Below are positions 39,893 through 53,706 of a DNA stretch of 64,000 nucleotides, in pieces; the first letter of the stretch is position 1; the number at the start of each line of letters is the position of its first letter. The translations under genes and the position numbers were made by a program. The stretch is taken from the NCBI RefSeq assembly GCF_003018235.1, contig NZ_CP027437.1, one strand, 5' to 3'. This stretch comes from Escherichia coli. GTDB taxonomy: Bacteria; Pseudomonadota; Gammaproteobacteria; Enterobacterales; Enterobacteriaceae. The notes under the pieces are model-generated. The model ran no database searches. It worked only from the letters and a program-made list of their open reading frames with translations, and was not told the origin of the DNA.

Positions 39893-40564
39893 ATGCGCGT
39901 ACTGGTTGTTGAAGACAATGCGTTGTTACGTCACCACCTTAAAGTTCAGATTCAGGATGCTGGTCATCAGGTCGATGATGCAGAAGATGCCAAAGAAGCC
40001 GATTATTATCTCAATGAACATTTACCGGATATTGCGATTGTCGATCTGGGATTGCCAGACGAGGACGGTCTGTCACTGATTCGCCGCTGGCGTAGCAATG
40101 ATGTTTCACTGCCGATTCTGGTATTAACCGCCCGTGAAAGCTGGCAGGACAAAGTCGAAGTATTAAGTGCCGGTGCTGATGATTACGTGACTAAACCATT
40201 TCATATTGAAGAGGTGATGGCGCGAATGCAGGCATTAATGCGGCGTAATAGCGGTCTGGCTTCACAGGTCATTTCGCTACCCCCGTTTCAGGTTGATCTC
40301 TCCCGCCGTGAATTATCTATTAATGACGAAGTGATCAAACTGACCGCGTTCGAATACACCATCATGGAAACGTTGATACGCAATAATGGCAAAGTGGTCA
40401 GCAAAGATTCGTTAATGCTACAACTCTACCCGGATGCGGAGCTGCGGGAAAGTCATACCATAGATGTACTGATGGGACGTCTGCGCAAAAAAATACAGGC
40501 ACAATATCCGCAAGAAGTGATTACCACCGTTCGCGGCCAGGGCTATCTGTTCGAATTGCGCTGA
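39893..40564 (+). CDS. phoP: Response regulator PhoP
   Basis: 223-aa OmpR-family [31 protein letters not shown]... Confidence 0.95.
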
Positions 40565-42024
40565 TGAAAAAATTACTGCGTCTTTTTTTCCCGCTCTCGC
40601 TGCGGGTACGTTTTCTGTTAGCAACGGCAGCAGTAGTATTGGTGCTTTCGCTTGCCTACGGAATGGTTGCGCTGATCGGTTATAGCGTCAGTTTCGATAA
40701 AACCACGTTTCGGCTGTTACGTGGCGAGAGCAATCTGTTCTATACCCTTGCGAAGTGGGAAAACAATAAGTTGCATGTCGAGTTACCCGAAAATATCGAC
40801 AAGCAAAGCCCCACTATGACGCTAATTTATGATGAGAACGGGCAGCTTTTATGGGCGCAACGTGACGTGCCCTGGCTGATGAAGATGATCCAGCCTGACT
40901 GGCTGAAATCGAATGGTTTTCATGAAATTGAAGCGGATGTTAACGATACCAGCCTCTTGCTGAGTGGAGATCATTCGATACAGCAACAGTTGCAGGAAGT
41001 GCGGGAAGATGATGACGACGCGGAGATGACCCACTCGGTGGCGGTAAACGTCTACCCGGCAACATCGCGGATGCCAAAGTTGACCATTGTGGTGGTGGAT
41101 ACCATTCCGGTGGAGCTAAAAAGTTCCTATATGGTCTGGAGCTGGTTTATCTATGTGCTCTCAGCCAATCTGCTGTTAGTGATCCCGCTGCTGTGGGTCG
41201 CCGCCTGGTGGAGTTTACGCCCCATCGAAGCCCTGGCAAAAGAAGTCCGCGAACTGGAAGAACATAACCGCGAATTGCTCAATCCAGCCACAACGCGAGA
41301 ACTGACCAGTCTGGTACGAAACCTGAACCGATTGTTAAAAAGTGAACGCGAACGTTACGACAAATACCGTACGACGCTCACCGACCTGACCCATAGTCTG
41401 AAAACGCCACTGGCGGTGCTGCAAAGTACGCTGCGTTCTCTGCGTAGTGAAAAGATGAGCGTCAGTGATGCTGAACCGGTAATGCTGGAGCAAATCAGCC
41501 GCATTTCACAGCAAATTGGCTACTACCTGCATCGTGCCAGTATGCGCGGCGGGACATTGCTCAGCCGCGAGCTGCATCCGGTCGCCCCACTGCTGGACAA
41601 TCTCACCTCGGCGCTGAACAAAGTGTATCAACGCAAAGGGGTCAATATCTCTCTCGATATTTCGCCAGAGATCAGCTTTGTCGGTGAGCAGAACGATTTT
41701 GTCGAGGTGATGGGCAACGTGCTGGATAATGCCTGTAAATATTGCCTCGAGTTTGTCGAAATATCTGCAAGGCAAACCGACGAGCATCTCTATATTGTGG
41801 TCGAGGATGATGGCCCCGGTATTCCATTAAGCAAGCGAGAGGTCATTTTCGACCGTGGTCAACGGGTTGATACTTTACGCCCTGGGCAAGGTGTAGGGCT
41901 GGCGGTAGCCCGCGAAATCACCGAGCAATATGAGGGTAAAATCGTCGCCGGAGAGAGCATGCTGGGCGGTGCGCGGATGGAGGTGATTTTTGGTCGCCAG
42001 CATTCTGCGCCGAAAGATGAATAA
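40564..42024 (+). CDS. phoQ: Sensor histidine kinase PhoQ
   Basis: 486-aa ORF with two TM segments, H-box and ATPase domain; overlaps the phoP stop. Confidence 0.95.
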
Positions 42025-42110
42025 ATATGTCCTTTTATCATTAAACACAACCAACCAATTGATTTAATTAAATAAATCTCACTACAGAAAGTGCCAAAAA
42101 TCGCAAATTG

Positions 42111-42131
42111 ACTACACCATTAACTACACCG
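42111..42131. repeat. 21-bp direct repeat ACTACACCATTAACTACACCG (candidate att core, left copy)
   Basis: Perfect copy at 53485..53505; imperfect similarity continues for ~40 bp to the right of both copies. Confidence 0.7.
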
Positions 42132-42286
42132 TTCGGTGCACTGTATGAAACAACGTGGAACAAATAGACACAAGAAATATATGGGCGGGTAATTTATCTA
42201 TGTGAAAGCGTGCCGACTAATAGGGCGTTAATGTCGATATGGGGATCCCCATATCGGGAACCATACCGGAATTTTTGCCAGGTTAA

Positions 42287-42409
42287 ATGTTAACCGCTGC
42301 CCTGTTAACATTTTTACCAAAAAGGTAGTTAACATTTTTTGCACGCAACCATATGAATCATAAAGACAAAATCAACAACAACGCTTCATCAGGCAGTTAA
42401 CATGTTAAC
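42287..42409. promoter_or_regulatory. Cluster of GTTAACAT / ATGTTAAC half-sites, including the 14-bp palindrome GTTAACATGTTAAC (candidate iterons/operators or packaging site)
   Basis: Motif at 42287..42294, 42304..42311, 42328..42335 and 42396..42409 in a gene-free ~0.8-kb terminal region. Confidence 0.4.
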
Positions 42410-42833
42410 TACTACAAAACGGTAATTTTTTCTCTGCGTGAGAGTGGGCGCGGTGTCCGAATTGTTCGTTGTTCGTGGCTAACCGCTCCCCCCCCTATAC
42501 CGGATTTTTTTCCGGTTAATCTTTAATCAGGCTGGTGGGGGTTACATACCCTTGATCACCGTAATGATGATTCAGGTATGCACCTTTCCCCCCGATGGGG
42601 TAAAAGCATCAACCGTAACGGTAATATCTGCCTTGATGGTCTGCGTGGTCATTATGACCATTCAGCCAATGACCTTAATCAGAATTTTTCGCTAAAAAAT
42701 GATGTTGGCCACGTCGTCCGGAAAGCACAAAATCCCGTCGATTTTTAATTAACGGTTAAACCGCCTTTTTGTCACGGTGTGTCACTGGTTGCCACTCACC
42801 GTCACGATGTCCGCTCGCCTGGCTGTAAATTAA

Positions 42834-42852
42834 ACTACGAAAATTTCGTAGT
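42834..42852. promoter_or_regulatory. 19-bp perfect palindrome ACTACGAAAATTTCGTAGT (followed by GGGACTACAAGTCCC palindrome)
   Basis: Read directly; lies upstream of the left-end hypothetical gene. Confidence 0.4.
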
Positions 42853-42925
42853 TGTGAGGGACTACAAGTCCCGCGCAAATTTCCCCCGGTCCCCTCAAAT
42901 TGAGGTTGCCGGAAATATCAACCAG

Positions 42926-43207
42926 TTACCGCCGTAACCGCTCCAGCTTCTTCCAGTGGTACGTAATTTTCTCTTTCTCCCGGTACATCTCAACGCGGCG
43001 ATTGTAGGCCAGCATTTCCAGAACGCGGATCCGTATGTCGCGCATATCTACATCGTTAAGCTGGATACCATCACGGCGCATCACCTCAGCAACCACACGC
43101 GCATAATTTTCAGCGGTCACGCTGTCCGGCTGCGTTGCCTGTTCGTCAGCCTGCTGGCTGATTCCTGCAACGCGGTGGATTAATCGCAGTATTTCGGCTT
43201 CTGTCAT
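42926..43207 (-). CDS. Hypothetical protein (93 aa)
   Basis: ORF 42926..43219; probable start ATG 43207 (MTEAEILRLIHRVAG...) with G-rich SD. Confidence 0.5.
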   Translation of the reverse strand: MTEAEILRLIHRVAGISQQADEQATQPDSVTAENYARVVAEVMRRDGIQLNDVDMRDIRIRVLEMLAYNRRVEMYREKEKITYHWKKLERLRR

Positions 43208-43241
43208 TGTGCCCCCCATCGTTCTAATCGTCTGGTGTCGT

Positions 43242-43295
43242 CGGGTCCTTCCTGGAATTATGGCCCGTTACGGGGCGGCGACCTCGCGGTTTTTC
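43242..43295. repeat. Inverted repeat, left arm (terminator-like hairpin plus T-run)
   Basis: Reverse complement of 43887..43940; the inner 32 bp are identical. Confidence 0.75.
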
Positions 43296-43521
43296 ACTAT
43301 TTATGAGATTTTTTAGGGGGTGGTTGTTGTTTAATTGTTTGTCATATCTATTTGATAACTAAGTAAAAATAGAGAGCAATACAACAACCTGATAGTGTTT
43401 TTTGATGCTACAAATAAAAAAAATGCTAATTGAATCAAATAGTTTTACAAAAATACGTGGTTGTTGTATTGCGTATTTGATGGCGTAACAGAAAGTGATT
43501 TTGAACTTTGCTGTTCTGTGA

Positions 43522-43731
43522 CTACTGATTGTTCCATGCTGGCGCGGCGAACGCTTCGGCATGACGCCCCCCAGCCAGAAAACCAGCCATTTTATTTCGT
43601 GCTTTGCTCACATCTTCCGGTGAGTAGCCGTAAATCTGTAAACCTTCATTGAATCGATGTTCTGTTTCTTCACTTGAGTACTCGTCGCTCTCCGATGAAA
43701 TCAGCCTGGCAACTTCAGTCTGCGTAGCCAC
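43522..43731 (-). CDS. Hypothetical acidic protein (69 aa)
   Basis: ORF inside the inverted-repeat-bounded cassette, downstream of CATGTCCGG repeats. Confidence 0.4.
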   Translation of the reverse strand: MATQTEVARLISSESDEYSSEETEHRFNEGLQIYGYSPEDVSKARNKMAGFLAGGRHAEAFAAPAWNNQ

Positions 43732-43753
43732 TCCTCACCTCACAATCACGACA

Positions 43754-43860
43754 AAACCGGTCATGTCCGGTTTACATGTCTATTTTTTGCGCATGTCCGG
43801 TTCATGGAAAGCCTATTTTTATATTTTTCATATAGTTAACTTGCAGAGAAACCGGACATG
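43754..43860. promoter_or_regulatory. Three copies of the CATGTCCGGTT(T) motif, including the 20-bp palindrome AAACCGGTCATGTCCGGTTT (candidate operators)
   Basis: 43754..43773, 43792..43806 and 43848..43860 (inverted). Confidence 0.45.
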
Positions 43861-43886
43861 GATCCCGGAAAATTTTCATAAATAGC

Positions 43887-43940
43887 GAAAAACCGCGAGG
43901 TCGCCGCCCCGTAACGGGTCCATATGCCGGAAAGGACCCG
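43887..43940. repeat. Inverted repeat, right arm; acts as minus-strand intrinsic terminator of the capsid operon
   Basis: Hairpins followed (on the minus strand) by a T-run, 30 bp after the stop of the 137-aa gene. Confidence 0.75.
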
Positions 43941-43969
43941 TAAAAAAGCCGGATTTCTCCGGCCTTGTC

Positions 43970-44383
43970 TCAGATGGTTTTCAGTATGCGATCGATGTCG
44001 CCGTCATCGCCCGGGTTTCTGCCATCGTATGCCATGCCAGCTGATACGGCTTGCGGGCTGTGCATGTCCATAAAGTTTTCAAAGGCTGCGGTAAGCTCTG
44101 GTGCAACCTTCAGGCGTTCCTGCTCTATGGTCATGCTAAGGATGCTTTTAGCCGTACCAACATCGATACAAGGCACGTTTGCCATTGCACGTAACAGCGG
44201 CTGATAGTCGCCAGATTCATCAAGCGCCATAATCGCATCAGAGCGCGGCTTGTCCTTCTCTTCCAGGCTGTTAAGTTGATATACGGCCTCGTAGGTTGAT
44301 AAACCTCTGTCAGCCATTGCCCGCGCTTCGGCCTTAAATTTACTCGCCAGCGGTAGCGTCATGATGCTTTCATTCGTTGCCAT
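43970..44383 (-). CDS. Hypothetical protein (137 aa), capsid-module associated
   Basis: ORF directly downstream of the decoration-like gene. Confidence 0.5.
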   Translation of the reverse strand: MATNESIMTLPLASKFKAEARAMADRGLSTYEAVYQLNSLEEKDKPRSDAIMALDESGDYQPLLRAMANVPCIDVGTAKSILSMTIEQERLKVAPELTAAFENFMDMHSPQAVSAGMAYDGRNPGDDGDIDRILKTI

Positions 44384-44395
44384 CGTTACCCCTGC

Positions 44396-44731
44396 TTATC
44401 GCGCCAGCGGCTGAACGGATACGCCAGAACCCGCAAAGGCGGCGCATTTTTTCGCGTCGGTGTCGACGCTCTCAGGCCAGTTTACAGCGGCGATATTGAA
44501 TATCCCCGCCTTGTAGCACTGTGCTGATTTCTGCTTTGACGTGTCCACGGGGTACGACGTCAGGTAAACAGCCTTGCCCGATTCCTGACCATCCCACGGT
44601 TTAAACTCGCCATTGTCCGCCAGCATCAGCGGGGTAAATTCCTGAATAACGCCAGCATCAGCGGCAAAATGTACCAGCGTCGTGGCGACCTGCTGACTGC
44701 CTGCAAATAACTCAATGTATGGAGTGTCCAT
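44396..44731 (-). CDS. Lambda gpD-like head decoration protein
   Basis: 111 aa; aligns to recalled lambda gpD (TPLMLxxxxxxxxxWDG..., xYKxGxF, WPE, KKxxAFAGxxxS). Confidence 0.7.
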   Translation of the reverse strand: MDTPYIELFAGSQQVATTLVHFAADAGVIQEFTPLMLADNGEFKPWDGQESGKAVYLTSYPVDTSKQKSAQCYKAGIFNIAAVNWPESVDTDAKKCAAFAGSGVSVQPLAR

Positions 44732-44742
44732 AGAATTCCCCG

Positions 44743-45798
44743 TTAACCAATTTTGACGGTAACAAATTTGCGAATATCTGCCGGTACCGGCTGCGGTGCG
44801 CTGTGTGTCTGCACGTACTCAATCGCCGGATCGCCGTCTTCAATCCAGTTTTTCGGGTAGAACATGTTTTGCGTTGCGCCCGTTCTTACCGCTTCCTGAT
44901 CCATAATCGCACCATAGGCCACCAGCCCTTTATTGTTGGTGTTACCCAGGACCAGCAAATCAGGCTCAAGGAAATATTTTTCGGTGCCGTCGCTGTCAGT
45001 GTATTTGCCGGAATAGACGATAAGGGCCAGATCACCAAGATAGCCTTTAAAGCTCACCACTTCGCCCAGGTTTTTACAGGCCAGTTCGGCGGCGGATTCT
45101 GAACCACGGGAAAGATCGTACAGCTCACGGAATTTTTTAAAGCTGCGTAATGTGCGCCATACCTCAGCGCCCATAATCATGACGTTTGCGGGGCAACCAG
45201 CCTGATCAGCATAAAGCTCGATGTCATAGATTGGGTCGTGCATGTCTTTATCCTGCTCGGACCATTTTTTACCATTGGCCTGCTCTATGATGCAGTTTTC
45301 CGGTATTTTCCAGTCGATTTCATAGCGTTCTATGCCTTCGCCCTCAATGATGTTTTTTCCGGTCGTTACCGCATTCACCGCCAGCCATTCCACGCGTGCC
45401 TTAATGGCGTTTATCTGGCGGCGCACGTTGCCAGTAATCAGGCGCATGCGTCGGTATGTAGGGTCGTTAAGCTGTGCCGGATCTTCTCCAGCCATGCGCA
45501 TGATGGTTTTTGTTGGATCGATTTCATGCTTTGGCTTCATGTAGCCGGGTTTAATCGTGCTGGTTTCGTACCCTTTATCGCGCTGGACATGGCTACCCAC
45601 CATAGGCGAACAGAACGCTGACATCGTAACCTCTTCAATGTCCAGGGTGTCCAGCATGATGCTTTGGGTGTTGAAGGTCGCCACGTTCGGGAAAAACAGC
45701 GTGGTAAACAGCGGACTGAATTTAAATTCAGCAATATCCCCGCGATTCAGGTACGCGAAAAGCTGGTTAGTGTTAAGTGCCGTTGCTTTTCCTGCCAT
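44743..45798 (-). CDS. Lambda gpE-like major capsid protein
   Basis: 351 aa; conserved blocks KFxFxPLF, TPGYxKPKHE, DPxYRRxR, YPKNWxxxGDP relative to recalled lambda gpE. Confidence 0.8.
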   Translation of the reverse strand: MAGKATALNTNQLFAYLNRGDIAEFKFSPLFTTLFFPNVATFNTQSIMLDTLDIEEVTMSAFCSPMVGSHVQRDKGYETSTIKPGYMKPKHEIDPTKTIMRMAGEDPAQLNDPTYRRMRLITGNVRRQINAIKARVEWLAVNAVTTGKNIIEGEGIERYEIDWKIPENCIIEQANGKKWSEQDKDMHDPIYDIELYADQAGCPANVMIMGAEVWRTLRSFKKFRELYDLSRGSESAAELACKNLGEVVSFKGYLGDLALIVYSGKYTDSDGTEKYFLEPDLLVLGNTNNKGLVAYGAIMDQEAVRTGATQNMFYPKNWIEDGDPAIEYVQTHSAPQPVPADIRKFVTVKIG

Positions 45799-46004
45799 TA
45801 TTCACCCCCATGAGTCTGATTCATGCCCAGCGCCGCGCGTAAATAGGCGCGTACCTGCCAGCCTGTTGACGGCTCAACCATCGCCAGCGGATCAAGTCCT
45901 GCCGCAATGCCTGCTTTTACGTTCTGCTGGTGGCGTTCCTTGAGCGCCTCCACGATGTCGGGGCTTATGTACACCGAAACACCGCCTTTTTTCTCTTCTG
46001 CCAT
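45798..46004 (-). CDS. Hypothetical protein (68 aa) upstream of the capsid gene
   Basis: ORF with start/stop overlap with the capsid gene. Confidence 0.4.
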   Translation of the reverse strand: MAEEKKGGVSVYISPDIVEALKERHQQNVKAGIAAGLDPLAMVEPSTGWQVRAYLRAALGMNQTHGGE

Positions 46005-46166
46005 TGGTTGAAATTCCTCTTTAACAAAAAAAACATAACTGGATGAAAATCCAGTTGTGATTATAATTGTGATTGCACTTTGTGCAACGATATTGAGTTA
46101 TATTGCAAATTATGAAATGATTATCCCGATCATGTGTGTCAGTGCACCAAAAAAAACTCATATGCA

Positions 46167-46207
46167 AAAGCCCGATAAGACCCCTCTGACCTTATCGGGC
46201 TTTTTTA
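46167..46207. terminator. Bidirectional intrinsic terminator between replication and capsid modules
   Basis: Stem gcccgataag/cttatcgggc with TTTTTT on the plus strand and a T-run on the minus strand. Confidence 0.55.
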
Positions 46208-46409
46208 TCTGTCGGCAAAGACATCGAACAAAAATTAATCACAATCATCATCTTTTTTTCATCAATGCGATTAAAAACAATAAATTACGCTCATGATGAT
46301 GATGACGATAAAACCACAAAAATGCGCTTTTTTCCGCGCCACCCGTCCCGTGGATGGTCCCGCCAGCCAGGAGGACCCATAAAAAAGCCGGATTGCTCCG
46401 GCTCTGCTC

Positions 46410-46682
46410 TCACTTCTGCGGGTAGTTGCGCCATATTGTTTTCCCTATACCATCTATCCCCATTTGTTTTTCAGTGCGATCAACCGACCGTTTCAGCGCG
46501 CCAAAACCATCCGGCGGCTCCGGTGGCCTCTGTGCCTTCCTGGAACATTCCAGCCGTCGCATTGCCACCTGTGCGCGTTCCTTGTCTGTCTCCACCAGCT
46601 GCATGACTTCACCCCATCGCGCGGCCGCCCTCCGGTAAAAGCCTTTCGACTCGAGTTCCTCCGCTATGCGGTCATGTACCAT
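46410..46682 (-). CDS. PerC-like transcriptional activator
   Basis: ORF 46410..46802; probable start ATG 46682 (strong SD, 10 nt after the SSB stop); motif GFYRRAAARWGEVM resembles the PerC RGLWRRAADLW motif. Confidence 0.5.
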   Translation of the reverse strand: MVHDRIAEELESKGFYRRAAARWGEVMQLVETDKERAQVAMRRLECSRKAQRPPEPPDGFGALKRSVDRTEKQMGIDGIGKTIWRNYPQK

Positions 46683-46692
46683 CCTCACCCCC

Positions 46693-47103
46693 TCAGAACG
46701 GAATACCATCACCGTAAGGGTCATCGCCTCCCGCTGGTGGCTGATTACCCTGTGTGCCTGTGGTTGTGCGTCGGCTCCCGCCAGGACGTGCCGTACGGGC
46801 ACTGATTACGCTGTCTGCAATGACCTGATAACCCTGCCGCGTTTCGCCGTTCTGTCCGGTCCACTGGCTTACCTGCATGTTACCCGCCACGCTCACCAGT
46901 TCGCCTTTGTGGTGTTTTGCCAGTGCGTCGGCCTGTCTGCCAAACGCCAGGACGGATAACCACATCGTCGCCGTTCCGTCATCTGTCTGGCTGCATGGCA
47001 GGGGAACCGCCATACTCGCCATCGCCATTTGTGTCCCTTTGCTGGTGGTCTTTAACTGCGGGTCAGCCACCAGCCGTCCGTAAGCCGCTATCTGTGCTGT
47101 CAT
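46693..47103 (-). CDS. Single-stranded DNA-binding protein (SSB-like)
   Basis: 136 aa; OB-fold-like N-terminus and C-terminal acidic tail ...DDPYGDGIPF (SSB signature DDDIPF). Confidence 0.7.
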   Translation of the reverse strand: MTAQIAAYGRLVADPQLKTTSKGTQMAMASMAVPLPCSQTDDGTATMWLSVLAFGRQADALAKHHKGELVSVAGNMQVSQWTGQNGETRQGYQVIADSVISARTARPGGSRRTTTGTQGNQPPAGGDDPYGDGIPF

Positions 47104-47342
47104 GCTGTCTGCTCTCCGGTTTTAACGTTGATGGTTGTTACCTGTTCCGCTTCGGCAATCTCCCGTTCTGTCAGCGTGGCAAAGTTTGCGGCCGCTGTGG
47201 TCATGAATGCGCTTATCAGTTCTGGATGTTCCTTCGCGTATCCTTCCCGCGTGTGGCGGTCGATGATTTTTATCGCCACCCTCAGCCAGTGTTCTGTAAG
47301 GTCAATGGCGCGGTGATCTGTCTTTTTGTGGCTTACCTTCAT
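47100..47342 (-). CDS. Hypothetical protein (80 aa)
   Basis: 4-nt overlap with the SSB start. Confidence 0.45.
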   Translation of the reverse strand: MKVSHKKTDHRAIDLTEHWLRVAIKIIDRHTREGYAKEHPELISAFMTTAAANFATLTEREIAEAEQVTTINVKTGEQTA

Positions 47343-47345
47343 GAT

Positions 47346-47669
47346 TTACTCCAGGGTACCGCTATTGCTGCAGTCGTTAACCGGATACCAGGCAAATACC
47401 CATGACTCACCGCAGTGAACAAACTTCTTATCTGGCAGATAAAGGCACTCGAACATTCCCTCATCAGGACTATGCGGACTCACGCCAAGCTCACTGGTCA
47501 GCACGGGTAAGATTTCGCGGTAAGTATCCCCAGTGCCGAAATGGTTGACCTCACAAAGCGCCCATGCAGCAATTGGGCTATACCATTCCGTGCCGTCGTC
47601 GTCTTTGAACTTCGCCCACCAGCCAGGAAGGGCGGTTGATAAGCTCAGTGTTTCAATTTCAGATTTCAT
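47346..47669 (-). CDS. Hypothetical protein (about 107 aa)
   Basis: ORF 47346..47714; start placed at MKSEIETL. Confidence 0.45.
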   Translation of the reverse strand: MKSEIETLSLSTALPGWWAKFKDDDGTEWYSPIAAWALCEVNHFGTGDTYREILPVLTSELGVSPHSPDEGMFECLYLPDKKFVHCGESWVFAWYPVNDCSNSGTLE

Positions 47670-47915
47670 AAATTCACCTTCTGTATTTTGTCCTGCTGTT
47701 CGATTTTTATTCATTACTCACCACTCCTCACTTTTACTCCTCACTTTTTAAGTTGCCTCACTTCGTCTCACTTGAGATTTTCGTGTTTTCTATTAATTTG
47801 TTTTATAAGATTTTTTTCACTCCTCACTTTTGAGGATGTATACAGGTGAGAAAGTGAGTAATTGTGTTAATATTTTGTAAAAACCTCACCGTTACTCACT
47901 TTTGCTACTCACTTT

Positions 47916-49325
47916 TTACAGTGGTCCTACATCATCACCATCAATGTAAATCACGGCGTCTTTTTCCAGTTTGGCTAACCATCGCCGCATATTTTTCACG
48001 TCATACCCAAGCCGTTTCATGTCATCACGTAACAGCGCAATAGTGCACTTGTCGCCGTTCTGTGTGCGTGAACGTATGCACCCCCATAGCGCGGTATGGT
48101 TTTCCGTCTTGTTGCCTGCCTCCTCGATGCGCTCCAGTTCAACAGGAGGACGCGGCTTATCCACCACCACCAGCGACGTGATTAATTCGCCGTCAGCGTC
48201 GGTAAAAAGCTCCACTACCCGCAAATCGTAGGCGGCTTCTTTGAGTTCCTCTGCGTCCTTCATTTTTGTGCATGAGATAACCAGGGCTTCGCTTCCTGCG
48301 TCCTCTCTGCGTATCCGGTATTCAGCGTCCAGTGATGCACGGAATGCACTGGAACCACGCGCGCCCTTTGTTTCATCTTTGCCGGAATGGTGAACCACCA
48401 GCACCGTGGACCCTGTGCGTCGTTTCAGTTCGTCACATCCACGGATAAACGCCCCCATGTCACGGGAGTCATTTTCATCATTGCCGCCAAAGCAACGCGC
48501 CAGCGTATCCAGAATAATCATTCGAACAGGTTTACCCGTTTCCCGCTCCACCTGGCTGGCTGCGATAACCATTTCATCAACATCAAGCGGGGCCGCCGGA
48601 AAGACCGGACGGTTTACCAGATACAGATTTTTCACCTGTACATCGTGCACAACCTCCCAGGCTTTTATGCGACGCGGAACGCCTATACCACCTTCACCAA
48701 CCACATAGAGAACAGAACCATGTGCAACCCTGCGGCCTCCCCAGTGGCGGCCCGTTGAAATGTGACACGCCCACGAACCAGCAAGAAACGATTTATAGGA
48801 TCCGCTCGCTCCGTATATGCTGCACAGCGACGCCGCCGGAATAATGCCCTTAACCACGTAATCCAGTTGCGTGTCATATCCGGTAGATCCAACGCTCATC
48901 GGTAGCGTGGTGTTTCGTTGGGGGTTTTTTGCCATTACCAGGCTTTCCCCTCTCTCCCATGTCTCCCGCAACCGTGGTAGCTGGTCGGTCCATTTCTCCA
49001 GCAATTCGAAATTTTCAGAAAGCAGTCGCGCTTCCCTGACTCCGGCAATCGCCAGTTTCGTCGCGATGGTTAGCAACTGCTCTTCGTCAATATTTCCGGC
49101 GCGTATCACTGTGACCCTGTGCCGCCCCTCATCAACAATTTGCAGATTATCCAGTTCGCTTAACTGATAACGGCCCAGGTAAACGGGAGGCGTCGGGTCT
49201 CCCGCCTTTTTGGCCTGTGCAACGATGTAATGCTCTGCAAATGAGTGAGCATCAACACCCGCGAAAATAATCGCGTCGGTGTACTTATCTTTCGGTAATA
49301 GTTTTACGTTCGGTGCCAGTTTCAT
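47916..49325 (-). CDS. Replication protein with RecA-fold (RepA/AAA_25-type) helicase core, Pri-Rep-like
   Basis: 469 aa; Walker A-like GASGSYKS, Walker B-like MIILDTLAR, SGKDETKGARGSSA motif typical of RepA-type helicases of satellites and plasmids. Confidence 0.7.
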   Translation of the reverse strand: MKLAPNVKLLPKDKYTDAIIFAGVDAHSFAEHYIVAQAKKAGDPTPPVYLGRYQLSELDNLQIVDEGRHRVTVIRAGNIDEEQLLTIATKLAIAGVREARLLSENFELLEKWTDQLPRLRETWERGESLVMAKNPQRNTTLPMSVGSTGYDTQLDYVVKGIIPAASLCSIYGASGSYKSFLAGSWACHISTGRHWGGRRVAHGSVLYVVGEGGIGVPRRIKAWEVVHDVQVKNLYLVNRPVFPAAPLDVDEMVIAASQVERETGKPVRMIILDTLARCFGGNDENDSRDMGAFIRGCDELKRRTGSTVLVVHHSGKDETKGARGSSAFRASLDAEYRIRREDAGSEALVISCTKMKDAEELKEAAYDLRVVELFTDADGELITSLVVVDKPRPPVELERIEEAGNKTENHTALWGCIRSRTQNGDKCTIALLRDDMKRLGYDVKNMRRWLAKLEKDAVIYIDGDDVGPL

Positions 49326-49621
49326 TTTTTACCCCTGAATCCGTTAATCATGTTTTTCATCTTCTGAATATTGGCGCGGGCCTTCTCCCTGCTGGTGGGC
49401 TGGCTGCGTTGCGCTGCCTGTACCAGAGAAAAATCACGCCGGAACTGATAAACAGGCATCACGCAGTCATATTCGTAGCCTTCACGGCGGTAGGTTACGC
49501 GCCGTTCCTCCACGCCCTTGATCATTACCGTGCCGCCGTACTGGTCGCGGTAAATATCCCCGCGCATGAATTTAGTGCGAGTTTTGCCGCTGGCAGTTAA
49601 GCCAGAATATTTAAGTTTCAT
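49322..49621 (-). CDS. Hypothetical basic protein (99 aa)
   Basis: 4-nt overlap with the replication gene start. Confidence 0.45.
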   Translation of the reverse strand: MKLKYSGLTASGKTRTKFMRGDIYRDQYGGTVMIKGVEERRVTYRREGYEYDCVMPVYQFRRDFSLVQAAQRSQPTSREKARANIQKMKNMINGFRGKK

Positions 49622-49626
49622 TATTT

Positions 49627-50109
49627 TTATTCTCCGGTGTGGGGCGTTTTATTCTGTTCGCGTAATAACTCTTTTTCTCTTAAATTGAATTCAGCTACGT
49701 AATCGGCATAATCAGCGGTAATATTCAGTACATCCACTCCCGTTGCTTTATATTCTTTCATACCAAGTAAGAAAAAAGATGCCCTTATCAGTTCCGATAT
49801 TGATGAAAGCGCATCAGTCGCATCATCGGATAATCCTGAAAATTCCTGTTTCAGGGCATTAAAACGATCATCACGCATAACCCCCCCATTTTCACAATCA
49901 GCAATCAGGATAGCTTTGGCCTCATTCAGTGCCATATCAGCGGTAAGCTGTGCGTATGCCAGTGAATGCGGGATTATTGCCCCGGTATATTCCGTCTCTC
50001 TGGTAATGTGTTTTTCTGCGGTTGCTGCCGTGCATGAAATATCAATCAGCGCGTGCATTAGCGTTCTGATAGCTTCGGCGGCTGCGTCCGGACGGATGTT
50101 ATTGCACAT
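49627..50109 (-). CDS. Hypothetical protein (160 aa)
   Basis: ORF in the leftward operon. Confidence 0.45.
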   Translation of the reverse strand: MCNNIRPDAAAEAIRTLMHALIDISCTAATAEKHITRETEYTGAIIPHSLAYAQLTADMALNEAKAILIADCENGGVMRDDRFNALKQEFSGLSDDATDALSSISELIRASFFLLGMKEYKATGVDVLNITADYADYVAEFNLREKELLREQNKTPHTGE

Positions 50110-50716
50110 GTATCACCCCCTGACGAATACGGGCGGCGAATACAGCAACACAACCAGACGGGCAACGGCTACGCGCTTCGCGTTCCGTCCAGGCGGTGAC
50201 GTGGATGATTTGGGATTCTGACGCGCAAAAGATGATAAAGCGCCAGATAAAGGCAGTTTGAGAATGTACGAGGGTAGGGATAGTAGCCATGTTGGCAGCC
50301 TCCTTTATCGTTGGGATAACCCCACCGCCGGAGGTGGTAAGCTCGCTGGCGGTGGACTGTACGGAGTTACCACAACTGGCGATAAAGGAAACCAGCCCGA
50401 CCGAAGTCGGCCCCGTACAGCCCACCATTGTAAAGGTGTGCGTGTGCGCCGATACAAAAAAAGACGCGTGCGGCGTCTGTATCGCCTTTATCTCCAGCGG
50501 GGTGGTAATCCCGGCACCCGTTTTATGAGGTGCACGGGAATCATAGCCATTTCCACCAGTGGCGATCAACTGGTTTTTCTGGCGAGCTTCCTGTTCGCTG
50601 GTGGCCTCAATGGTAATCACGCGCGGTTGTGCCGTGCTCAGGGCGATAAAACGCCAGATGTATTTATTCAGGTTGTACGAGCCCCGCCCTTGCGGGTGTG
50701 TGGTATGATTTCTCAT
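50099..50716 (-). CDS. Uncertain ORF spanning a tandemly duplicated ~0.4-kb module
   Basis: Frame open from ATG 50716 (GAGG SD) to stop 50099; a second SD plus ATG at 50290 inside; DNA-level paralogy between ~50221..50340 and ~50619..50750. Confidence 0.3.
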   Translation of the reverse strand: MRNHTTHPQGRGSYNLNKYIWRFIALSTAQPRVITIEATSEQEARQKNQLIATGGNGYDSRAPHKTGAGITTPLEIKAIQTPHASFFVSAHTHTFTMVGCTGPTSVGLVSFIASCGNSVQSTASELTTSGGGVIPTIKEAANMATIPTLVHSQTAFIWRFIIFCASESQIIHVTAWTEREARSRCPSGCVAVFAARIRQGVIHVQ

Positions 50717-50813
50717 AGCTACCTCGATACTCTGGTTATCGTTGGTGGTTAGACGCCCTGCATGTGTTGCGAGCACTGCGGGGCGTTGCTTAATTTGAGT
50801 AACACCACTCAAA

Positions 50814-50895
50814 CTGTGCGCACAGATTAAAATTATGTATGCGCACACATCAATACTTAACATCTCGTTTTTTTTGCTGTATTGTGTGCGCCCAT
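50814..50895. promoter_or_regulatory. Operator cluster between divergent operons: palindrome CTGTGCGCACAG plus two related TGTGCGC sites
   Basis: 50814..50825 perfect 12-bp palindrome; 50835..50850 near-palindrome; about 50883..50893 third copy. Confidence 0.5.
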
Positions 50896-50921
50896 AAAGT
50901 CCATTTAAGTAAGGTGCATCA

Positions 50922-51119
50922 ATGTCTAGCGGTAACACAAACAACAAATCAGCAAAGAAAAATATTCGATTCCCACATGAGCTTATAGATGGAATTGATG
51001 CCAGCGTTGAACAAGAAAAATTAACTAATCCTAGTGCTAATTTTTCCGCATGGGTCTTGGATGCCTGTGGACGCAAATTAAAATATGAACAGCGCCGCAA
51101 GGCCAAAGAATCAGAATAA
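50922..51119 (+). CDS. Small ribbon-helix-helix-type DNA-binding protein (candidate island repressor)
   Basis: 65 aa; KKNIRFPHELIDGIDA...FSAWVLDACGRKL pattern; divergent from the replication operon. Confidence 0.5.
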   Translation: MSSGNTNNKSAKKNIRFPHELIDGIDASVEQEKLTNPSANFSAWVLDACGRKLKYEQRRKAKESE

Positions 51120-51176
51120 TTACTATCAGCGCCGTGGTGTGAGGTACTCCGGCGCATTGCTTTACAGGTACACACA

Positions 51177-51401
51177 ATGACCAAAGGCACATCATCACCG
51201 GAAAACGGCGAAATTACGCCAACATATGAAATTATCCGGCAAAGGCAGTCAGAAGCCTGCGCCAGACTTGAGGAAGAACTAACCAGAACAAAAATACCAC
51301 CAGCGCCGCGCTTAGCGCCACCAGAAAAATTTGCCCTTGAAGATTTTGTCGAGAAATACCCACGGCGGCTTAAATCTGGTAAAAACCGCCCGCCAGGCTG
51401 A
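51177..51401 (+). CDS. Hypothetical protein (74 aa)
   Basis: ORF downstream of the RHH gene. Confidence 0.4.
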   Translation: MTKGTSSPENGEITPTYEIIRQRQSEACARLEEELTRTKIPPAPRLAPPEKFALEDFVEKYPRRLKSGKNRPPG

Positions 51402-51665
51402 TAGCATTGTCCACCAGCAATAGAACGGTTATCATGCTCTGGCTTATGTTTGGGATCACATACACATAAGGTGCAGCGGGTTAATTGTTCAGAAAGGCGG
51501 TTCCATTTCGGGGCCGCTTTTTTTATGCCTGAAAAACCCCAATTTTGTTGTTTTCCAGTCTCACCAGGGCGAACGAATCCCCGCCCACATTCGGGCGCAT
51601 ATTCAATCTTCATGGTTATATCTCTGTATTAGTGGATGTGTGGCGGCTGCGTGCCGCCAGCGTGA

Positions 51666-51854
51666 TTAATGAACTGCCTTGCAGCTATCCTTCCAGGCCA
51701 GAACCTCGGATAAAGACCAGCCAACGGAACGACCGCCAAGTTTACGACGTGATGGGAATTGTCCGGCCTTTTCCAGGCGGTAGCGGCATGAGCGGCTAAG
51801 GCCTGTTAGCTTTTCGCATTCTTTTTCACGTATAAACCGATCAGTGCTTAACAC
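51666..51854 (-). CDS. AlpA-family excisionase / transcriptional activator
   Basis: 62 aa; LTGLSRSCRYRLEKAGQFPSRRKLGGRSVGWSLSEVLAW matches the AlpA helix-turn-helix pattern. Confidence 0.7.
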   Translation of the reverse strand: MLSTDRFIREKECEKLTGLSRSCRYRLEKAGQFPSRRKLGGRSVGWSLSEVLAWKDSCKAVH

Positions 51855-52228
51855 TATTGCCCCCTTTCGTTTCTTAAAGAGTTATTTCGTGTTCTATTGC
51901 GTTGGGATGTGTCTGATTGTGTCAGGATGATTCAGAGTTGGCAAATGTTGAGGTCGTATGGTTTACAGAAAGAGGAACAATCAGGATAAAATCATTTAAA
52001 TTCATGTTAATACAAAGGCATAAAATCTCGTTTTATGCCTTTTTTCTCACGTGTTAAAGCGTTATTCGCTAATGTATAAAAAACCAGTCACACAAATAAA
52101 ATCAGTCACTTATAAACCTGCGTACTTTTTCGCCTCTTGTTCGTGGTTGTTCCACGTTGTTTCACATTGTTCGCCGTTGTATCTGTGTGCTTATCCAGTA
52201 TGCGCATACTGAAAAAACACGAAAAAAA

Positions 52229-53476
52229 TTATTTTCTTCTGGCTGCTGGTAGTGCGGTTACGTTTTCTTGTGTTCCCGCCAGTATCCCTAACCGCTCCGT
52301 CCACATATCCAGCGCATTGCGTTTAGCATCCAGATAACGGGAATGATTATAAACTCGCTGCATTCCTGGCATCTGGTGGCCTGTAAGCTGCTCCACGACG
52401 TGAGGATCCACGCCTAAATCGTTCAGCATCGTTGTAAAGGTGCGCCGGATGTCATGTAGTGACCAGTGAGGGTGATTTAGCCTCCTGTGCGCTAATCTGC
52501 CGTACTGCGACACGCTTGTTTCCTGTTTCACTTCCCCCAGCAATAAGCCCGTGTTCCTGTTCTGCTCCACCAGCTGCGTGACGAACGGCAGTATTGCTTC
52601 CGGTATGGGCCGGAATATTGCCACCTTCGTTTTGCTGTGTTCTTTCGGCACGGTCCAGAGCATTTCGGTAAAATCCCACTCTCTGATCTCCGATAACCTC
52701 AGTTCTACCGTCCGGCATCCGAACACAATCAGGAGGCGGATTAACGCGATGTAGTAAGGGGAAAATATTTTTTTGTCCAGTGCCTGCAATAATTCGCCCA
52801 GTTCTTTGGTGCTTAAGACACGCTCGCTTATATCCGGTTTTTTCCCAACGTCCGCCACACTCATATCATCAAGAACGTTGCTGATTGCATAGCGCCGCCT
52901 CCTGCAGAACTTAAGCGCCTGTTTGCACGTCTGTAGCAAGAATCCGGCAGTAACAGGCGTTCGCTTTGCCACCTGGTCAAAACAGGCCAGCCAGTGCCGT
53001 AGCTCGCATTTATCCAGCGGCATAGCACCAATGTGCTGTATTACGTGATTATTAAGGCGCTTTTTCAGGGCGGCATAATCCACGCGATTTTCCTTTGCGT
53101 ACGACTCAAGCCAGTAGGTGAGCGCATCGCCAACCGTTACCGGCTTTAACGCTTCCTGTACGGTGTAATTCATTTCATGACGTGGATTTTTCCCCTCTGC
53201 CAGCCATGCGCGACACTGGGCGGCTTTTTCCCTGGCTGATTTCAGGCTCAGATCAGGATAATTTCCCAGCTTAATGCGTTCCGGTGGTGCCCCCCTTCCC
53301 GTTCCGGCCCTGTAAGTGAAATACCAGGTTAAAAGGCCACTGGTTGAATGCCTGACGCTCAGGTTTCCACCGTCATTAAGAAAGGCTGTTTTTTGGGCGG
53401 GTGTGCCGTTGATTTTCCTCAGCTGTGTATCGCTCAGTTTGTTAAGTGCTCTGCTCATAATTTTGATTCCGGTCAT
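52229..53476 (-). CDS. Tyrosine site-specific integrase (P4-type)
   Basis: ORF 52229..53479; R...HxxR...Y catalytic-region motifs (HDIRRTF, GHQMPGMQRVYNHSRY); adjacent to the right repeat. Confidence 0.8.
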   Translation of the reverse strand: MTGIKIMSRALNKLSDTQLRKINGTPAQKTAFLNDGGNLSVRHSTSGLLTWYFTYRAGTGRGAPPERIKLGNYPDLSLKSAREKAAQCRAWLAEGKNPRHEMNYTVQEALKPVTVGDALTYWLESYAKENRVDYAALKKRLNNHVIQHIGAMPLDKCELRHWLACFDQVAKRTPVTAGFLLQTCKQALKFCRRRRYAISNVLDDMSVADVGKKPDISERVLSTKELGELLQALDKKIFSPYYIALIRLLIVFGCRTVELRLSEIREWDFTEMLWTVPKEHSKTKVAIFRPIPEAILPFVTQLVEQNRNTGLLLGEVKQETSVSQYGRLAHRRLNHPHWSLHDIRRTFTTMLNDLGVDPHVVEQLTGHQMPGMQRVYNHSRYLDAKRNALDMWTERLGILAGTQENVTALPAARRK

Positions 53477-53484
53477 CACAATTA

Positions 53485-53505
53485 ACTACACCATTAACTA
53501 CACCG
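53485..53505. repeat. 21-bp direct repeat ACTACACCATTAACTACACCG (candidate att core, right copy)
   Basis: Identical to 42111..42131; preceded by an extra ATTAACTACACC unit. Confidence 0.7.
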
Positions 53506-53706
53506 ATCGTTGCACAAAGGGCTACAACGTGAAACAAGCTGGAACAAGGAAAATCACAAACCTGTTTATAATCAAAAACATAATGAACAATCTGAAACAT
53601 TATGAAACGGCAAAAAACACTAATTGATAAAATATGTCCATACTTCACGCATTACGTTAAGCATCCGTTATAATCGGTTGCAGATACCAGCCTGTGGATG
53701 CTTAAC

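Follow-up and report, generated by a model that had tools for sequence, protein, structure and literature searches.

Approximately 11.6 kb of DNA separates phoQ (40564-42024) from roxA (53698-54828) in the 64-kb window, which is the whole stretch of DNA that we analysed. The two genes are adjacent in K-12, where the site is empty, and a previous reading of this DNA made without database searches (the sequence-only reading) correctly recognized an insertion here. A 10-bp direct repeat, AAATATGTCC, bounds the island and occurs in exactly two copies in the window: the attL core at 42023-42032, overlapping the phoQ stop codon, and the attR core at 53630-53639. The junction falls at this repeat in the alignment to the empty K-12 site, and the element spans 11,607 bp, repeat to repeat. 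Because attL occupies 42023-42032, island-specific DNA begins at 42033, the start given by the sequence-only reading; the end that it gave, 53624, moves to 53629 or 53639, according to which copy of the repeat is counted. Among 5,426 complete E. coli genomes, 543 (about 10%) have this integrase at the phoQ-roxA site. Six of the 18 TGTTAAC matches in the window are clustered within 122 bp of the attL-proximal non-coding arm (42288-42409) and are possible recombinase arm sites or regulator sites. Most of this cluster (42294-42409) is in a segment (42294-42496) that is absent from six related islands.

The right edge of the island carries the predicted P4-type integrase and AlpA genes. The tyrosine integrase (52229-53458, minus strand; phrog_1, E = 4e-75) and the AlpA-family activator (51666-51854, minus strand; phrog_2790, E = 2e-17) are 96.9% and 93.5% identical, respectively, to those of EcCICFT073, the prototype Gram-negative PICI, in which dependence on Int, AlpA and Pri, as well as packaging by way of cos, has been demonstrated (PMC6092414). 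Divergent from the early operon is a small regulator of the YlcI/YnfO family (DUF3950; 50922-51119, plus strand; NF041551, E = 4e-16; Pfam DUF3950, E = 2e-6) with an allele close to the E. coli 042 type (about 95% identity), and downstream of it is a 74-aa ORF (51177-51401, plus strand) whose positional counterparts in relatives are 50-55% identical. Three of the six window copies of the palindromic repeat TGTGCGCA fall within 33 bp of the divergent promoter region (50815-50847) and are candidate operators. A divergent regulator with palindromic repeats had been anticipated; an RHH fold is not demonstrated for it, the sole hint being a HicB-like match with E = 0.25.

Two RNA genes, neither of them listed in the sequence-only reading, lie inside an open frame of the early operon. 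The frame (50099-50716, minus strand; phrog_29966, E = 2e-92) has two Icd-like domains (approximately 50573-50716 and 50099-50290), each matching NCBIfam phage_ICD_like. The RNAs are an isrK-family RNA (50457-50533, minus strand; Rfam RF01394, 63.5 bits versus a gathering score of 50) with its own terminator (50462-50478), and a C4-family antisense RNA (50345-50432, minus strand; Rfam RF01695, 78.4 bits versus a gathering score of 45). Matches to both families have been reported in Gram-negative PICIs (PMC10111431).

The replication genes are all on the minus strand. The RepA-family helicase, the replication initiator (47916-49325; Pfam AAA_25, E = 4e-41; phrog_2850, E = 3e-221), is 92% identical to a protein of the RM10466 island. 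Directly 3' of repA is a putative replication origin (47715-47915) in which AGTGAG iterons (8 of the 13 copies on the island) flank a spacer of 80-87% A+T. On the other side of repA are genes for a DUF4222 protein (49322-49621; 87.9% identical to the EcCICFT073 homologue, annotated DUF4222) and a 160-aa protein (49627-50109; phrog_2512, E = 6e-62; 78-81% in relatives; no match in Pfam or PADLOC). Beyond the putative origin are a 122-aa accessory ORF (47346-47714; phrog_27268, E = 5e-11; no PADLOC match) with a counterpart only in AR_0085 among the islands compared, an 80-aa conserved ORF (47100-47342; phrog_1231, E = 7e-47; 85-91% in relatives), an SSB with the tail ...GDGIPF (46693-47103; phrog_44, E = 3e-38; 81.6% to EcCICFT073 SSB), and a PerC-family regulator (46410-46682; phrog_994, E = 1e-41, residues 41-129). 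The start of the regulator is likely Met41 of the listed 130-aa ORF, and the protein is 75.8% identical to that of EcCICFT073 and 89% identical to an AR_0085 protein annotated as PerC family. A terminator-like hairpin (46037-46056, minus strand) marks the boundary between replication and late genes.

The late module, also on the minus strand, begins with a conserved 68-aa ORF (45798-46004; phrog_3255, E = 5e-38) that is 95.6% identical to its EcCICFT073 homologue (94-97% in relatives) and has no significant match in Pfam. The gpE-like major capsid protein homologue (44743-45798; phrog_29, E = 1e-107) is 96.0% identical to the EcCICFT073 capsid protein c1499, 43% identical to lambda E, and at most 47% identical to anything among 50,697 phage records. 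The gpD-like head decoration homologue (44396-44731; phrog_49, E = 7e-27) is 98.2% identical to the decoration protein c1500 (PMC6092414) and 36% identical to lambda D. The sequence-only reading had listed these two genes together with the RepA-type protein, the SSB, the PerC-like regulator and the terminator, and all were found. It had not noted the scaffold (Nu3/gpC C-terminal) domain of the 137-aa protein encoded next (43970-44383; phrog_1999, E = 2e-62; 96.4% to EcCICFT073), which matches positions 494-567 of 583 in phrog_53 (E = 6e-8) and is 36% identical to residues 416-493 of 501 in PhiR12_1 C/Nu3. A terminator-like hairpin and T-run past this gene (43942-43964, minus strand) is conserved in each of the four islands that were aligned. 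The late operon ends with the gene for a conserved 93-aa PICI protein (42926-43207; phrog_1561, E = 3e-54; no Pfam match) that is about 90% identical (77-91%, five loci; 89.6% for EcCICFT073) to the product of the same-position ORF in EcCICFT073 and relatives. Of 5,426 complete E. coli genomes, 597 (11%) carry the capsid module, 591 of them in complete form. Strong purifying selection acts on the capsid and decoration genes, with dN/dS values of 0.09 and 0.11, respectively (0.14 for the integrase).

Two inverted lambda-type cosN sites flank a truncated rpp, a layout shared with EcCICFT073 and absent from the sequence-only reading. Both are exact matches to GGGCGGCGACCT, cos1 at 43898-43909 (minus strand) and cos2 at 43273-43284 (plus strand), and the 64-kb window contains no other cosN and no PhiR12-type helper. 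cos2 has a PICI-type flank and aligns with cos2 of relatives; its similarity to phage is limited to the cosN-proximal 75-95 nt or so. cos1 has a phage-type cosB flank similar to PhiR12 (43735-43897, minus strand) with three CCGGACATG repeats. A 211-bp query that included cosN and the cosQ side (43735-43945) was 93% identical over 98% of its length to the cos region of PhiR12_1/2/4/5, which sits just upstream of terS.

The truncated rpp is part of a 69-codon chimeric ORF (43522-43731, minus strand), as determined by DNA alignments and BLASTP. A ribosome-binding site and the first nine codons from the terS of a PhiR12-type phage are fused to Rpp codons 78-128, after which a 1-bp deletion alters the tail (BLASTP: 92% identity to residues 78-128 of RppA; 10 of 12 residues identical at the N-terminus of PhiR12 TerS). 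What is gone is the half of Rpp that binds DNA and mimics TerS. PhiR12 TerS and lambda Nu1 have unrelated N-terminal domains, and Rpp resembles the lambda-type one. Only two of the 5,426 complete genomes have this arrangement. The same chimeric module is present in two islands with another integrase, integration site (tRNA-Pro, next to yejM) and replicon, indicating that it spread after it formed. The Rpp-TerS complex and the cos1 cosB have been described for EcCICFT073, in which RppA is c1503 (PMC6739421), and sharing of helper-type cos has been reported in Gram-negative PICIs (PMC10111431). Replacement of the DNA-binding half of Rpp by a complete PhiR12-type cos suggests that the island could be packaged directly by helpers of that type.

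Taken as a whole, the island is very probably a classical Gram-negative PICI of the EcCICFT073 family at the family's usual site. The view that it is an integrase-bearing phage satellite and not a prophage is supported; no island ORF matched portal, protease, large terminase, tail or lysis genes in PHROGs, NCBIfam or Pfam. The proposal of an undescribed lineage does not stand: the island is a new mosaic within a well-studied E. coli satellite family. For nearly every segment, one or another of six related islands gives a match at 74-97% nucleotide identity, and capsid and decoration genes are typical of EcCICFT073-type PICIs, so the odd-looking gene set is no sign of a new lineage. Of 29 reference Gram-negative PICIs, 21 have a capsid gene (PMC10111431), and "capsid morphogenesis" is listed as a PICI core component (PMC10085698). 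Anti-phage cargo, also proposed, was not found on the island by PADLOC.

The five PICI core components include Rpp or a TerS (PMC10085698), and rpp here is both truncated and frameshifted; therefore, the element may be defective in packaging rather than simply re-targeted. A decaying remnant, stranded in the chromosome by the loss of Rpp, is the alternative that we take most seriously, although we consider it unlikely. The rarity of the arrangement and the poor transfer of EcCICFT073 RppA mutants with lambda and phi80 (PMC6739421) fit such a remnant, but the damage is confined to the packaging slot. No other gene is shortened relative to its counterparts in related islands, both copies of the att repeat are intact, and cosN is exact at both sites. 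Moreover, what replaced half of rpp is a complete phage cosN-cosB and not random sequence, the chimeric ORF retains a ribosome-binding site and start codon, and the module has spread to other islands.

A satellite that assembles its own shell from the capsid, decoration and scaffold-domain proteins, with only the portal, terminase and tails supplied by a helper, is a quite improbable reading. The three genes are intact and adjacent, their capsid lineage is satellite-specific, the module is complete in nearly all carrier genomes, and dN/dS for the capsid and decoration genes is at or below that of the integrase. However, deletion of c1499 or c1500 from EcCICFT073, whose capsid and decoration proteins are 96% and 98% identical to those here, altered neither transfer by a resident prophage nor interference with lambda, transfer by lambda and phi80 was still high when the capsid gene was replaced by cat, and the DNA packaged when lambda was the helper was of phage size (PMC6092414, PMC6893505). 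These results contradict a self-made shell for EcCICFT073, at least with the published helpers, and our island has no portal, protease or adaptor gene. A misread P4-like satellite or capsid-forming PICI is hardly credible, as the sequence-only reading had also held: the P4-type integrase, AlpA, Icd-like ORFs and C4-family RNA are P4-like and a capsid gene is present, but no island ORF matched sid, psu, delta, epsilon or the alpha primase-helicase (PHROGs, NCBIfam, Pfam), portal, protease, TerL, HNH and head-tail adaptor genes are missing, and 11.6 kb is shorter than the 15.4-kb capsid-forming prototype EcCIEDL933 (bioRxiv 10.1101/2022.09.08.507074).

Based on these comparisons, we believe that the island behaves as follows. 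The integrase would recombine at the 10-bp core, as judged from the repeat here and the Int dependence of EcCICFT073. The element would stay quiet until a lytic helper lambdoid phage induces alpA, and AlpA, given its 94% identity to the EcCICFT073 protein for which this was demonstrated, would activate its own promoter and the leftward operon. The Rfam matches suggest that the isrK/C4 pair in the Icd-like frame probably contributes premature termination of early transcription by a P4-style RNA mechanism. The RepA-type helicase, DUF4222 protein and SSB are predicted to drive replication of the excised circle from the iteron/A+T-rich origin, and concatemers would be cut at cos by the helper terminase and packaged into helper capsids with helper tails. 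In most relatives, Rpp redirects a lambda-type TerS towards the cosB of the island itself. The present island is most likely recognized directly by a PhiR12-type TerS, with neither redirection nor Rpp-based interference, because the DNA-binding half of Rpp is lost and a whole PhiR12-type cosN-cosB is in its place. The late module is intact and under purifying selection; in EcCICFT073 it is dispensable for transfer.

The island shares its site, gene order and orientation with EcCICFT073 of CFT073. cos1 is at the position of the functional cos1 of EcCICFT073 (PMC6092414, PMC6739421), and the putative origin matches the layout of the PICI ori (PMC6092414). In contrast, Pri-Rep of EcCICFT073 is another allele type, with which RepA here shares only the N-terminal 122 aa (46% identity). 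In the early operon, the likeness is to P4 and P1: the C4-family RNA is a relative of the P4 CI and P1 c4 RNAs, the isrK-family RNA is a relative of the P4 seqA target, and the Icd-like frame, which reads through both RNA genes, is comparable to P4 eta (PMC10111431).

The ~11.6-kb insertion between phoQ and roxA is real and is bounded by a short repeat. We aligned both window junctions to the empty site of K-12 MG1655, in which roxA directly adjoins phoQ, and found a common core, AAATATGTCC, at 42023-42032 and 53630-53639, and nowhere else in the window (64 kb). The stop codon of phoQ lies partly within the first of the two copies. From repeat to repeat the inserted element is 11,607 bp, and the limits proposed in the sequence-only reading (42033-53624) were essentially exact. 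The element is preceded by phoP (39893-40564) and phoQ (40564-42024) and followed by roxA (53698-54828) and then pepT. G+C content and GC skew change across it, and the window is devoid of tRNA genes. The integrase-roxA junction was present in 543 of 5,426 complete E. coli genomes, and this variable occupancy of the site fits the expectation for a mobile element. Near attL there are six TGTTAAC motifs within 122 bp (42288-42409) that could be recombinase arm sites or regulator sites; most of this cluster is inside a ~200-bp segment (42294-42496) that is absent from six related islands.

The genes recognized from sequence alone were confirmed by profile searches with PHROGs, NCBIfam, and Pfam and by a reading of hairpins. 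They encode a P4-type tyrosine integrase (52229-53458, minus strand), AlpA (51666-51854, minus), a small divergent regulator (50922-51119, plus), a 469-aa RepA-type AAA_25 helicase (47916-49325, minus), DUF4222, SSB, and PerC-like proteins, a lambda E-like capsid protein (44743-45798, minus; 43% identical to gpE; phrog_29, E = 1e-107), and a lambda D-like decoration protein (44396-44731, minus; 36% identical to gpD). Between the replication genes and the capsid genes is a terminator-like hairpin (46037-46056). Apart from the ylcI pair, which is divergent, every gene from alpA to the 93-aa ORF is encoded on the minus strand, and the relatives are alike in this. The profile match of the small regulator was to the YlcI/YnfO family (DUF3950), and the RHH fold proposed for it was not demonstrated.

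As anticipated from the sequence, no ORF matched a large terminase, portal, protease, tail, lysis, or head-tail adaptor profile in PHROGs, NCBIfam, or Pfam. When every island ORF was compared by BLASTP to the lambda head proteins, E and D were the sole matches. Most ORFs were without a name in NCBIfam, and those of 137, 93, and 160 aa had no match in Pfam. Anti-phage cargo had been suggested among the small ORFs, and we found no PADLOC match to defence genes among ten unassigned ORFs. We also considered the 93/97-aa ORF as a candidate for Rpp and rejected it; a PDB sequence search was empty, and the literature places Rpp in the neighbouring slot, as the 144-aa c1503.

The island is a new mosaic member of a known and experimentally studied satellite family, the EcCICFT073-type phage-inducible chromosomal islands (PICIs). 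It had been taken as a candidate for an undescribed satellite lineage. However, the prototype PICI of Gram-negative bacteria, EcCICFT073, occupies the roxA-phoQ interval of E. coli CFT073 with the same gene order and orientation and high protein identity, placing the candidate lineage in a described family. The order in EcCICFT073 is int, alpA, ylcI, Icd-like, small ORFs, DUF4222, replication protein, small ORF, SSB, PerC, 68-aa ORF, capsid, decoration, and then ORFs of 137, 144, and 93 aa. Identities between the two islands were highest for decoration (98.2%), Int (96.9%), the 137-aa ORF (96.4%), capsid (96.0%, to c1499), and the 68-aa ORF (95.6%), followed by AlpA (93.5%), the 93-aa ORF (89.6%), DUF4222 (87.9%), SSB (81.6%), and PerC (75.8%). 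Both have SSB, PerC, DUF4222, and Icd-like genes, an rpp slot between two inverted cos sites, and an iteron origin (putative in our island) 3' of the replication gene. They differ in the replication protein, which is a primase-type Pri-Rep (584 aa) in EcCICFT073 and a RepA-type helicase (469 aa) in the island; in rpp, which in the island is cut down to a 69-codon terS::rpp chimera; in the PhiR12-type cosB flank, which is on cos1 in the island and on cos2 in EcCICFT073; and in the ylcI/operator allele (34% amino acid identity). The island also has an extra isrK/C4 RNA pair, a second Icd-like domain, and an extra 122-aa ORF.

EcCICFT073 is the one island for which helper-dependent induction, replication, packaging, and high-frequency transfer have been demonstrated (PMC6092414). 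Its int, alpA, and pri-rep are required for induction and transfer, and alpA is switched on by helper phages and not by the SOS response itself, after which AlpA activates the island (PMC6092414). The origin is 3' of the replication gene, and lambda, phi80, or a resident prophage packages the island via its cos sites (PMC6092414).

The island has most of the features by which Gram-negative PICIs are recognized. alpA is next to int, and the early and late genes are unidirectional. The attachment site is specific to PICIs, given the closeness of Int to that of EcCICFT073, the common phoQ-roxA site, and the 10-bp repeat at both ends. RepA and SSB make up its own replication module, it has the capsid homologue typical of enterobacterial PICIs, and it is without the tail, lysis, portal, and head-tail adaptor genes that such islands must lack. 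The exception is packaging specificity, conferred by TerS or Rpp in combination with cos or pac: there are two cosN sites, but the chimera is without the DNA-binding half and there is no TerS. By the rules of SatelliteFinder, four components of five would still make the island a PICI of 'Type B' (PMC10085698).

The island is a mosaic of known PICI modules. Using megablast against the 5,426 complete E. coli genomes, we found numerous islands annotated with this set of genes, some at other chromosomal sites. Six related islands cover nearly every segment at 74-97% nucleotide identity, and the largest segment outside those six, the ylcI/operator allele, is ~95% identical to the E. coli 042 type; these segment matches are the basis for calling the island a mosaic. 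The exact combination of modules was in none of the complete genomes, the best match having 81% coverage and 89% identity. E. coli PICIs have four Pri-Rep allele types (PMC6092414), and the RepA of the island is not of the CFT073 type and is 92% identical to the proteins of the RM10466 and O26 islands. A 201-bp gap directly 3' of repA (47715-47915), which ends at the neighbouring ORF, holds 8 of the 13 copies of AGTGAG in the island, on either side of a spacer that is 80-87% A+T. This segment is a putative origin, with a layout like that published for PICI ori (PMC6092414).

The packaging slot of the island contains a phage cos region fused to what is left of rpp. RppA of EcCICFT073 (c1503, 144 aa) binds phage TerS and blocks recognition of the phage cos, and the RppA-TerS complex is directed to cosB of cos1 (PMC6739421). 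In the island, there is an inverted pair of exact lambda-type cosN sites at 43898-43909 (minus; cos1) and 43273-43284 (plus; cos2), and none elsewhere in the window. Alignment with three relatives showed that the surroundings of both cosN are kept, that the 5' half of rpp is replaced, and that a 1-bp deletion shifts the frame near the 3' end. A 211-bp query of the replacing sequence together with cosN aligned over 98% of its length, at 93% identity, to the cos region that immediately precedes terS in phages PhiR12_1, PhiR12_2, PhiR12_4, and PhiR12_5. The homology takes in the ribosome-binding site of the phage gene as well as terS codons one to nine (MATQTEVAR). Within 43522-43945 (minus), a recombination junction at the common string TTGCCAGGC connects the phage cos and terS start with rpp, beginning at rpp codon 78. 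The resulting 69-codon chimeric ORF (43522-43731, minus) has RppA residues 78-128 at 92% identity. The position of F121, a residue that dimerisation requires (PMC6739421), falls within this stretch, and the TerS-mimicking DNA-binding domain is missing.

The captured flank has three CCGGACATG repeats, and cos2 of EcCICFT073 bears a flank of the same type. At cos2 of the island, the match to phages is near cosN only, so no helper can be deduced from that flank. PhiR12 TerS and lambda Nu1 have unrelated N-terminal domains, and it is the lambda-type domain that Rpp resembles. Based on these comparisons, we infer that a PhiR12-type terminase would recognize this copy directly and that lambda-type TerS would no longer be redirected or inhibited. 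A literature search on the PhiR12 phages found nothing. Sharing of a helper cos region by a PICI has already been described, for 11capE and the helper prophage 50icd (PMC10111431).

We considered whether the island is instead a decayed element that has lost its packaging function, as had been raised from the sequence alone, and believe that this is less likely than a switch of helper. The captured cos is complete and all genes other than rpp are intact. In addition, the chimeric block has reached islands of other backbones: the 791 bp comprising cos1, the chimera, and cos2 were found at 99.1% identity in only two other genomes (GB089 and MFDS1022581). The PICIs in those genomes (at tRNA-Pro, next to yejM) have the same capsid module and differ from our island in integrase, attachment site, replicon (primase-type), and regulatory alleles, indicating that the block moved between islands after it formed. 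For these three reasons a helper switch by cos capture is the more likely reading of the sequences. The PICIs of RM10466 and O26/O145 strains have the same phoQ-roxA site as the island and have integrase, AlpA, and capsid module in common with it, together with the RepA-type replicon, whereas they have a full-length lambda-like TerS (194 aa, 57% identical to Nu1) in place of the chimera; in the RM10466-type island, this TerS (3887-4471 of that locus) is between two cos sites, where others carry Rpp. The slot in this family thus holds at least three packaging solutions, Rpp, an island TerS, and a captured helper cos, and this copy appears to preserve the junction of one switch between them.

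Selection maintains the capsid module. Pairwise dN/dS among six islands was 0.09 for capsid and 0.11 for decoration, compared to 0.14 for integrase and 0.30 for the 137-aa and 68-aa ORFs. The block of 68-aa ORF, capsid, decoration, and 137-aa ORF was found in 597 of 5,426 complete E. coli genomes, nearly always at full length, and is therefore a common feature of the PICI family; a capsid gene is present in 21 of 29 reference Gram-negative PICIs (PMC10111431). One relative departs from this intact state: in strain MFDS1022581, the annotation marks the PICI capsid gene (13545-14598 of that locus) as frameshifted. For the 137-aa protein, we found similarity to the C terminus of PHROG 53 (head protease/scaffold) and to the C/Nu3 protein of PhiR12_1 (residues 416-493 out of 501), and the module thus encodes capsid, decoration, and a scaffold-domain protein. 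Capsid proteins in phage records were at most 47% identical to that of the island, and those of the PhiR12 phages were the best.

No function of the capsid module has been found, either in this copy or in the family as a whole. The sequence-only proposal that the island supplies its own shell is contradicted for the helpers tested so far: in EcCICFT073, whose proteins are 96-98% identical, deletion of c1499 (capsid) or c1500 (decoration) left transfer and interference unchanged, and the DNA packaged with helper lambda was phage-sized (PMC6092414). We found nothing in the literature on a proven function of E. coli PICI capsid genes past these 2018 deletion results. A helper type outside the lambda and phi80 experiments could reveal a role for these strongly conserved genes, and PhiR12-like phages are suggested as such a helper, since they resemble the island separately in the cos region, in the capsid protein (theirs being the closest among phages), and in Nu3. 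We regard as improbable the combined reading in which the late module would have a real structural or antiviral role missed with lambda and phi80 and, separately, the island would be a natural helper switch by cos capture with rpp broken. In one possible role, natural helpers, for example of PhiR12 type, would contribute portal and protease, and the module proteins would assemble with these into satellite-specific or chimeric heads; in another, the module would poison head assembly in competing phages.

The early operon of the island contains a variable regulatory RNA module. Rfam searches identified a C4-family antisense RNA (50345-50432, minus; 78 bits) and an isrK-family RNA (50457-50533, minus; 63.5 bits), both above the gathering score and located between two Icd-like domains in one open frame. 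The pair is also in the 2014C-3338 island (10180-10365 of that locus) and absent from EcCICFT073 and three other relatives; this patchy presence indicates that the module is variable. Both models are described as picking up relatives of the CI RNA of P4 and of its target, seqA, and as matching several Gram-negative PICIs (PMC10111431), so the feature is already known. By analogy, the pair suggests P4-style termination control of the early transcript. The two domains are in the distal 206 codons (50099-50716) of a 504-codon frame, which read through the isrK and C4 genes. We rejected the 504-aa ORF as a whole (50099-51613, minus), as its first ~300 codons are probably non-coding and are antisense to ylcI and a 74-aa ORF. 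In the interval separating ylcI from the Icd-like frame, three TGTGCGCA palindromes that overlap or adjoin one another (50815-50847) fit the operators proposed earlier, but the count of this motif across the window is not above chance.

The island has features in common with other satellites while being distinct from each. It is not a capsid-forming PICI of the EcCIEDL933 type, as its head genes are for capsid, decoration, and scaffold domain only, and the portal, protease, TerL, TerS, HNH, and head-tail adaptors of that set are absent. Nor is it P4-like, since no ORF matched the psu-delta-sid operon, epsilon, or the alpha primase-helicase in PHROGs, NCBIfam, or Pfam; its helper type is lambdoid, with cos, and its late module is different. 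It does resemble P4: its integrase is P4-type, it has a protein of the AlpA/Vis family, and it has an RNA of the C4 family together with a seqA/isrK-like target inside an open frame of the early operon. Its Icd-like frame recalls the eta frame of P4, which contains the CI RNA. SaPIbov5, a cos-type SaPI, has a Gram-positive host and a capsid homologue, Ccm, that redirects capsid size and shape (PMC8569155), in contrast to the E. coli PICI homologue, for which no such effect was found and which is unrelated to Ccm in sequence; the two are alike in being satellites that combine a helper-type cos site with a homologue of the helper capsid.
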